Virus record (IMG/VR): IMGVR_UViG_2529292873_000013
Direction: 5' to 3' (one strand)
Source: a virus
Taxonomy: Duplodnaviria > Heunggongvirae > Uroviricota > Caudoviricetes
DNA: 8,262 nucleotides
Numbering within the stretch: the stretch's first letter is position 1; every line of letters starts with the position of its first letter. Under the pieces are notes generated by a model that saw nothing but the letters and a program-made list of their open reading frames with translations, ran no database searches and had not been told where the DNA came from. This document shows, in pieces, positions 4,369 through 4,815 of this stretch. Both the position numbers and the translations under genes were made by a program.

Positions 4369-4815
4369 AGGTGATTCTCCAGACGAAGCCCCAGAACACC
4401 GGCAATCTCTTCCAGCACCTTGCGCTCTTCCGGCTCAATTTCGCCGTCTGCCTCCGCAATGGCCACCGCCACATCCAGCACATCTTCCGCTTCACGCGTA
4501 TCGTGTTTCACATCCTCGATCTCACGTAACGCCGCACGACGACCAATTTTAAAGTTCGTATCCAGCTGACCGATAATGGTTGCGCTAATCGCATTAATTT
4601 CTGACGTAAACGCGGACAGCGCTGGCTGATTACGCAGTACCTGTTCGATCTTCGCTTTCTAGGAAGCCTCACATTCACCATCTGCACAGGCCACCAGGTA
4701 TGCGGCGTTAATCACCGCCTGTGCCAGATCGCGTTTCTCAAACTTTCCTTTTTCCGGTTAACGTGACACACCAATAACTCTTGTCGAAAAAGCCAGCAAG
4801 CTGAAAGACCGGTAT
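4365..4815 (-). pseudogene. TerB-family (tellurite-resistance TerB-like) gene, disrupted by an in-frame TAG and at least one frameshift
   Basis: Minus frame from 4757 to 4368 reads ...KFEKRDLAQAVINAAYLVACADGECEAS*KAKIEQVLRNQPALSAFTSEINAISATIIGQLDTNFKIGRRAALREIEDVKHDTREAEDVLDVAVAIAEADGEIEPEERKVLEEIAGVLGLRLENHL, showing the two acidic-Gly repeats typical of TerB. TAG at 4659..4661. An upstream piece (...QLAGFFDKSYWCVTLTGKRK) is in a different frame that stops at 4738..4740; the shift is at a T5 run at 4749..4753. No usable start codon found. Confidence 0.5.

Follow-up and report, generated by a model that had tools for sequence, protein, structure and literature searches.

The closest described relatives of the locus analysed here are the TciA proteins of phage P1 and of lambdoid phages (the tciA-tciB genes of JLK-2012; phrog_632), which fall in the same Pfam TerB fold family as the gene remnant that is the subject of this work. 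The TerB protein of the terZABCDEF tellurite-resistance operon (Klebsiella, PDB 2JXU) likewise consists of a single TerB domain with two ADG-x5-E-like motifs. An intact tciA gene encodes a 143-aa single-domain protein of the TerB family, which matches phrog_632 over its whole length (1-143/143, E=1e-68) and is recognizably related to Klebsiella TerB (phmmer E=2.9e-7). For P1 TciA, both the role and the name are known only by homology to TerB (PMC9603915, on P1-like phage-plasmids). A TerB gene paired with a DUF3927 gene recurs in P1, in Salmonella phage pSal-SNUABM-04 and in JLK-2012, where the homologue of the remnant is annotated tciA and its neighbour tciB. With regard to genomic position, the site 3' of Q is the cargo, or accessory-gene, position of the lambdoid prophage late operon, and in Stx phages the toxin genes occupy this cargo site downstream of Q.

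The window, that is, the whole stretch of 8,262 nucleotides that was analysed (IMG/VR virus record IMGVR_UViG_2529292873_000013), contains such a site. Its segment 4300..4900 has the same sequence (100% identity) as a lambdoid prophage of E. coli O157 strain 493/89, and the two agree at every base from about 1250 to 5750. The segment is 99.3-99.8% identical to O55:H7 (99.8%), O157:H7, O103:H2, O121 and other STEC genomes. Identity to the best-matching complete E. coli genome falls to 98.1% when all 8.2 kb are compared. Single-base deletions that are private to the window with respect to all close complete genomes lie at 141, ~450, 5861, 6152, ~6466, 7123-7167, 7654, 7873, 8028 and 8049; they split the genes for lysozyme (ORFs 50..451 and 421..621), RusA and DUF968 (ORFs 6168..6458 and 6455..7213), and none of 5,426 complete E. 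coli genomes contained the 41-mer that spans the 5861 deletion. These deletions reflect either a heavily decayed prophage copy or sequence errors in the flanks of the window. We also observed a sok antitoxin RNA (7810..7984, minus strand; Rfam RF01794, 116 bits), which adjoins a hokD-type toxin ORF and forms with it a type I toxin-antitoxin module of the prophage.

All genes around the remnant lie on the minus strand and, as taken from the annotations of near-identical loci and from the ORF list of the window, follow each other in the order RusA and DUF968, Q, an intrinsic terminator, the TerB-family remnant, DUF3927, STnc100, a SASA-family esterase, and holin and lysozyme (Table 1). The terminator, which the annotation of near-identical loci places between Q and the late genes, appears to be tR'-like, and we apply the name tR' to it in this sense. 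In relatives of the prophage the same site carries other cargo, such as tRNA-Ile/Arg genes and a 65-aa ORF followed by a DNA methyltransferase gene; within the window, ARAGORN found no tRNA genes and stx is absent. As for the small RNA, a relationship of STnc100 to the PasD sRNAs is described in a 2026 preprint (doi 10.64898/2026.05.13.724894), in which TerB also figures among the genes conserved near PasA/PasC. On the plus strand at ~3863..4006, overlapping the 5' end of the oppositely oriented esterase gene, PGAP annotates in near-identical genomes a partial pseudogene ('hypothetical protein, missing N- and C-terminus').

Table 1. Features of the window around the tciA remnant, ordered in the direction of transcription of the minus-strand genes.
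Feature	Position	Strand	Basis
Late antiterminator Q, 273 aa, intact	4965..5786	minus	ORF list; 'antitermination protein' in near-identical loci
Intrinsic terminator 3' of Q (stem 4884..4867, T-run 4866..4860); tR'-like	4860..4884	minus	terminator scan
Untranslated leader of another late-operon cassette, ending in a Shine-Dalgarno-like AAGGAAA and holding the T5/A5 run	4747..4866	minus	matches in other genomes
T5 run (A5 on the coding strand) in the leader-derived Shine-Dalgarno region; not a frameshift site	4749..4753	plus	alignment; no upstream start
Recombination junction with AAA microhomology, foreign leader to tciA codon 18	4744..4746	minus	three-way alignments of the window, loci L006-L008 and intact tciA
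tciA / TerB-family gene remnant, codons 18-143 and TGA stop, lacking a start codon	4365..4745	minus	Pfam TerB; 98% aa identity to intact TciA; PGAP pseudogene
TAG replacing GAG (Glu46 of the 143-aa protein)	4659..4661	minus	intact homologues all GAG
Residual 48-aa GTG ORF, C-terminal third of TciA	4365..4511	minus	ORF list; matches phrog_3920
DUF3927 / TciB-like gene, 55 aa, intact	4201..4368	minus	phrog_1470 'TciB-like', E=1.5e-29
STnc100 sRNA gene, between the DUF3927 and esterase genes	4027..4193	minus	Rfam RF02076, 101.6 bits (gathering score 47)
SASA-family carbohydrate esterase gene, 645 aa, intact	1949..3886	minus	ORF list; annotation of near-identical loci

What occupies the cargo site is, with high confidence, a nonfunctional remnant of tciA that was disabled by a stop codon and by the loss of its start through recombination, and neither the product of a sequencing error nor of a homopolymer frameshift. 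Read on the reverse complement of 4340..4900, its frame runs ...PEKGKFEKRDLAQAVINAAYLVACADGECEAS, the TAG, KAKIEQVLRNQ...EADGEIEPEERKVLEEIAGVLGLRLENHL and the terminal stop. The conceptual translation of the remnant (130 aa, with an X put at the stop) matched the Pfam TerB profile PF05099 over residues 13-125 at 44.4 bits, above the curated cut-off of 24.4 (E=2.3e-11). When compared over residues 18-143 with the complete 143-aa TciA that strain EC4115 (O157:H7) and phage JLK-2012 encode, the remnant is 98% identical in amino-acid sequence. By tblastn against the phage collection, identity was 98-99% to the 143-aa protein of the lambdoid phages Evi, JLK-2012 and PPyecE_EH1910, 67-78% to the homologues of jumbo Salmonella and Erwinia phages and 51% to TciA of P1/P7/D6. 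Judged from these sequence comparisons, the profile match and identities show that the remnant gene belongs to the TciA group, and it also has the synteny of TciA genes, with a TciB-like DUF3927 gene directly downstream. A functional member would require an uninterrupted ORF of about 143 codons with its own start. Unlike intact phage TciA, the window copy has lost codons 1-17 together with the ATG and carries a TAG at codon 46, so that no TciA protein is possible, and we found no alternative start codon that could replace the lost ATG. In near-identical loci, PGAP/RefSeq already labels the TerB gene a pseudogene with an 'internal stop'.

Outside the two lesions, no private non-synonymous change from codon 18 to the stop sets the remnant apart from the pool of intact alleles; inactivation is thus recent, or else the copies have been homogenised by gene conversion, and a less probable alternative is that the sequence is under selection for another role. 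In the set of complete E. coli genomes (n=5,426), the 3' part of tciA was located at 2,722 places in 805 genomes. With respect to a possible membership of TciA in anti-phage defence, PADLOC returned only a sub-threshold partial match (E=0.005, no single stretch passing), and the DUF3927 product had no PADLOC match.

The in-frame TAG in the conserved region, at a codon where a sense codon would be expected, had been noticed in a sequence-only reading of the window, and both points were borne out. On the minus strand, 4661..4659 reads TAG within the TerB frame (...ACADGECEAS, stop, KAKIEQVL...), and the TerB homology is continuous in one frame on either side of it, which makes it a true in-frame nonsense codon. 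The intact homologues that were aligned, those of JLK-2012, Evi, PPyecE_EH1910, EC4115 (WP_001302123) and 2013C-3342, all read GAG here. The residue concerned, Glu46, is the Glu of the first ADG-x5-E motif and is conserved in 6/6 intact relatives (P1 TciA and Klebsiella TerB 2JXU among them), whose identities range from 23 to 98%; the window has a stop in place of this conserved Glu of ADGxxxxxE. A 41-mer centred on the TAG, designed so that a megablast seed is possible only when the TAG base matches, was found at 962 places in 577 of the 5,426 complete E. coli genomes, with up to five copies per genome. The same 41-mer with GAG occurred at 164 places in 159 genomes, so the TAG allele is commoner than the closest sense allele with identical flanks, and it makes up about 35% of tciA copies (962 of 2,722 places). 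The exact copies in these genomes, together with the 'internal stop' pseudogene label of PGAP, indicate that the TAG is a widely inherited nonsense allele and not a read error of the window. As a genuine inherited allele, it should not be 'corrected'.

The frequency of the TAG is the least ordinary observation made at this locus, and it could be taken to mean that the stop codon is maintained, either because loss of TciA is advantageous in STEC prophages, or because UAG is partly read through, or because the remnant RNA or DNA plays a role in cis in the late transcript upstream of the tciB-like, STnc100 and esterase genes. We regard this as improbable. The share of TAG copies, their number of up to five per genome, their excess over the matching sense allele and a coding sequence otherwise free of private lesions from codon 18 to the stop would all fit with it, but read-through is irrelevant in a copy devoid of a start codon such as that of the window, no suppressor tRNA was found, and a second, independent lesion (the junction) was gained on the TAG background. 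Besides, recombination is heavy among the lambdoid prophages of STEC, enough to spread a neutral allele. A more speculative formulation, to which we give a similarly small chance, is that the TAG is favoured in STEC/EHEC lambdoid prophages for instance because intact TciA would be costly or would disturb the ter island of the chromosome or other prophages in the same cell, or that the remnant RNA acts as a structured leader for the tciB-like, STnc100 and esterase genes. If true, a favoured TAG or a leader RNA would explain why about one third of the tciA copies, otherwise undamaged, carry the stop. Neutral hitchhiking can account for the TAG outnumbering the sense allele, but does not predict it; we consider recombination among STEC lambdoid prophages a sufficient explanation. 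The TAG copies sampled have too few differing sites for a formal dN/dS estimate.

As regards the 5' end of the gene, the sequence-only reading had assigned the N-terminal piece to another frame, joined to the remainder by a shift at the T5 run. The run is indeed there, on the plus strand, but the sequence upstream of ~4746 proved to be unrelated to the 5' end of tciA. The tciA homology ends at ...AAAG/TTTGAGAAACGC (the slash marks the breakpoint), at about 4746. On the 5' side of that point intact genes read ATGTTTGGTATTTTC...GAAATTAAAAAG, encoding MFGIFKKKTRRAATEIKK, and this intact N-terminus of TciA gave no alignment anywhere in the window. The window sequence at 4744..4870 corresponds instead, with 88-100% identity, to an unannotated intergenic stretch 3' of Q that about 1,870 genomes share. 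In E2348/69, AR_0055 and PV15-279 this stretch ends in ...CACGTTAACCGGAAAAGGGAAAAAGACATG, and its ATG is the start of a 65-aa hypothetical ORF, behind which lie a DNA methyltransferase gene and tRNA genes; the order of leader, ATG of the 65-aa hypothetical ORF and DNA methyltransferase gene is that of loci L006-L008. The parental leaders read CCGGAAAAGGGAAAAAGACATG and the window CCGGAAAAAGGAAAG/TTTGAG. The junction sequence of the window, CACGTTAACCGGAAAAAGGAAAG/TTTGAG, is leader-like through GGAAA and tciA-like from AAAG, which places the crossover in the shared AAA. Among the complete E. coli genomes, 502 contain a 43-mer that spans the junction, at 638 places in total; the junction is thus inherited and not an error. 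The conserved leader also contains a tiny ORF encoding MTEITPVQ (4836..4860, minus strand), which begins in the T-run of the terminator.

These alignments bear directly on the reading by which the window holds one TerB gene whose N-terminal part is out of frame through a single-base change in the length of the T5 run, caused by error or slippage, with the TAG as a separate event. We consider that very unlikely. One A fewer in the A5 run would indeed join '...LAGFFDKSYWCVTLTGK' to 'GKFEKRDLAQ...', and 'FFDK' resembles the N-terminus of Klebsiella TerB (MSFFDK); the likeness to TerB N-termini is, however, coincidental. The upstream segment is the leader of the other cassette, which in the ~1,870 genomes mentioned above runs into the ATG of the unrelated 65-aa ORF. 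A homopolymer frameshift would have both frames encode consecutive parts of the same protein and the upstream frame open with a start codon, but the upstream sequence matches a non-coding leader, and no ATG, GTG or TTG occurs in the supposed N-terminal frame (IPVFQLAGFFDKSYWCVTLTGKRKV, then a stop) between the preceding TGA at 4818..4816 and the run. Furthermore, the same run and junction are present in the 502 complete genomes. The foreign leaders carry A4, or CCGAAAAA, in place of the A5/T5 run, which is part of their purine-rich Shine-Dalgarno stretch; when read in the direction of the gene, the junction follows the run at a distance of 3 nt. The proposed homopolymer frameshift at T5 thus gives way to a recombination or deletion junction that brought in a foreign leader.

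Homopolymer length does vary at the 5' end of other tciA copies, which lends the frameshift reading some general plausibility. Many of these copies (loci L009 and L012-L015; locus ~1630-1654, minus strand) have A7 and not A6 at codons 7-8, by which the ATG frame is broken, and in them the protein predicted by PGAP begins at a TTG, which compensates for the break, and has 142 aa (WP_001434745.1). The A7/A6 difference is a genuine homopolymer length polymorphism of tciA, which occurs on GAG as well as TAG backgrounds and is not present in the window.

That the TAG is a sequencing or assembly error, the true codon at 4659..4661 being a sense codon, is scarcely credible, for even if private single-base deletions elsewhere in the window, such as that at 5861, suggest a source that is possibly error-prone or much decayed, the same TAG context recurs without change at all 962 places, in complete genomes that were sequenced independently, and the surrounding sequence is that of the complete genome of strain 493/89. 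Of the two explanations offered by the sequence-only reading, decay or sequence errors, decay agrees with the missing start and with the nonsense codon at an invariant Glu, and errors do not survive the recurrence of the TAG and of the junction in complete genomes or the RefSeq pseudogene label.

We therefore return to the remnant as a gene inactivated twice. One lesion is a G-to-T transversion that turned the codon of the invariant Glu46 from GAG into TAG. The other, independent of it, is a recombination or deletion junction at the AAA microhomology, which exchanged all sequence 5' of codon 18, with the ATG and the native ribosome-binding site, for the untranslated leader of another late-region cassette. 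Other prophages, whose Q is of a different type, contain copies in which the TAG is combined with a native 5' end (L012-L015; annotated by PGAP as 'internal stop', 429 nt), and every junction-bearing copy examined has the TAG, as does a divergent junction-bearing copy in strain 08_3323. When the junction was combined with GAG in a single query against the 5,426 genomes, the best match was still one mismatch off. Since TAG copies with a native 5' end exist and all examined junction copies carry the TAG, it is most likely, on the basis of the sampled loci and the exact-oligonucleotide counts, that the nonsense mutation preceded the 5' replacement, which then affected an already dead gene. A second lesion on the TAG background is as expected of a dead gene. 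Both lesions may then have spread among the lambdoid prophages of STEC/EHEC by prophage recombination.

As to what could still be made from the locus, the TerB frame offers no start ahead of the TAG other than two internal GTGs, from which peptides of at most 18 aa would result. The first start after the TAG is the GTG at 4511, which opens the residual 48-aa ORF; its translation seems doubtful, with a GAGG only 2 nt from the GTG. The family that it matches, phrog_3920, consists of 48-aa proteins to which no function is assigned and spans residues 96-143 of TciA. That this ORF has a PHROG of its own implies that gene callers routinely report it in phage genomes, and they tend to derive this spurious 48-aa ORF from the remnant; phrog_3920 was apparently built from C-terminal fragments of nonsense-bearing tciA and is likely an annotation artefact family. 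Read-through of the TAG by amber suppression was considered and discarded: ARAGORN found no suppressor tRNA with a CUA anticodon in the window, which has no tRNA at all, or in nine related loci, the tRNAs of which are only Arg(tct/tcg), Met/Ile(cat), Lys(ttt), Asn and Gly. Transcription probably still runs through the remnant, which would then form an untranslated spacer in the late transcript that depends on Q. Downstream of it, the DUF3927 protein is identical to WP_000216629.1 as encoded in one of the related loci (L001). The GTG of its gene overlaps the TGA of tciA (GTGA), an overlap of the DUF3927/TciB-like gene with the tciA stop that is shared with the phage TciA loci. A GGAG lies 8 nt before this GTG, and the gene can probably be translated with its help, with no need for coupling to tciA.

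Compared with the described systems, the locus differs from Klebsiella TerB in being only about 23% identical to it and in that TerB is part of the ter operon, whereas the phage gene stands alone as an accessory gene, here a pseudogene; it differs from P1 in lacking the tciC that P1 has. Its position is that of the cargo site of lambdoid and Stx prophages downstream of Q/PR'/tR', between Q and the esterase and lysis genes. In contrast with the usual cargo (stx, tRNA genes or methyltransferase cassettes), the window has the leader of one cassette fused to the body of another. The apparent frameshift is thus a module-exchange junction, and a small but clean example of the mosaic recombination of cargo downstream of Q in lambdoid/Stx prophages. 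The remnant itself is in essence covered by RefSeq, which has annotated this pseudogene in hundreds of STEC genomes: the RefSeq/PGAP entry 'tellurite resistance TerB family protein, internal stop' of O157 strain 493/89 (E3172_RS11075) has identical sequence and coordinates at the same locus. With the pseudogene already flagged by RefSeq, the importance of these results beyond annotation hygiene is slight. The PGAP entry, however, records the internal stop only; its feature begins at the codon for Leu24 and the replacement by the foreign leader is not recorded. The correction to be made to the annotation is that, as the alignments indicate, the 5' defect of this tciA copy is a cassette-exchange junction and not a homopolymer frameshift.
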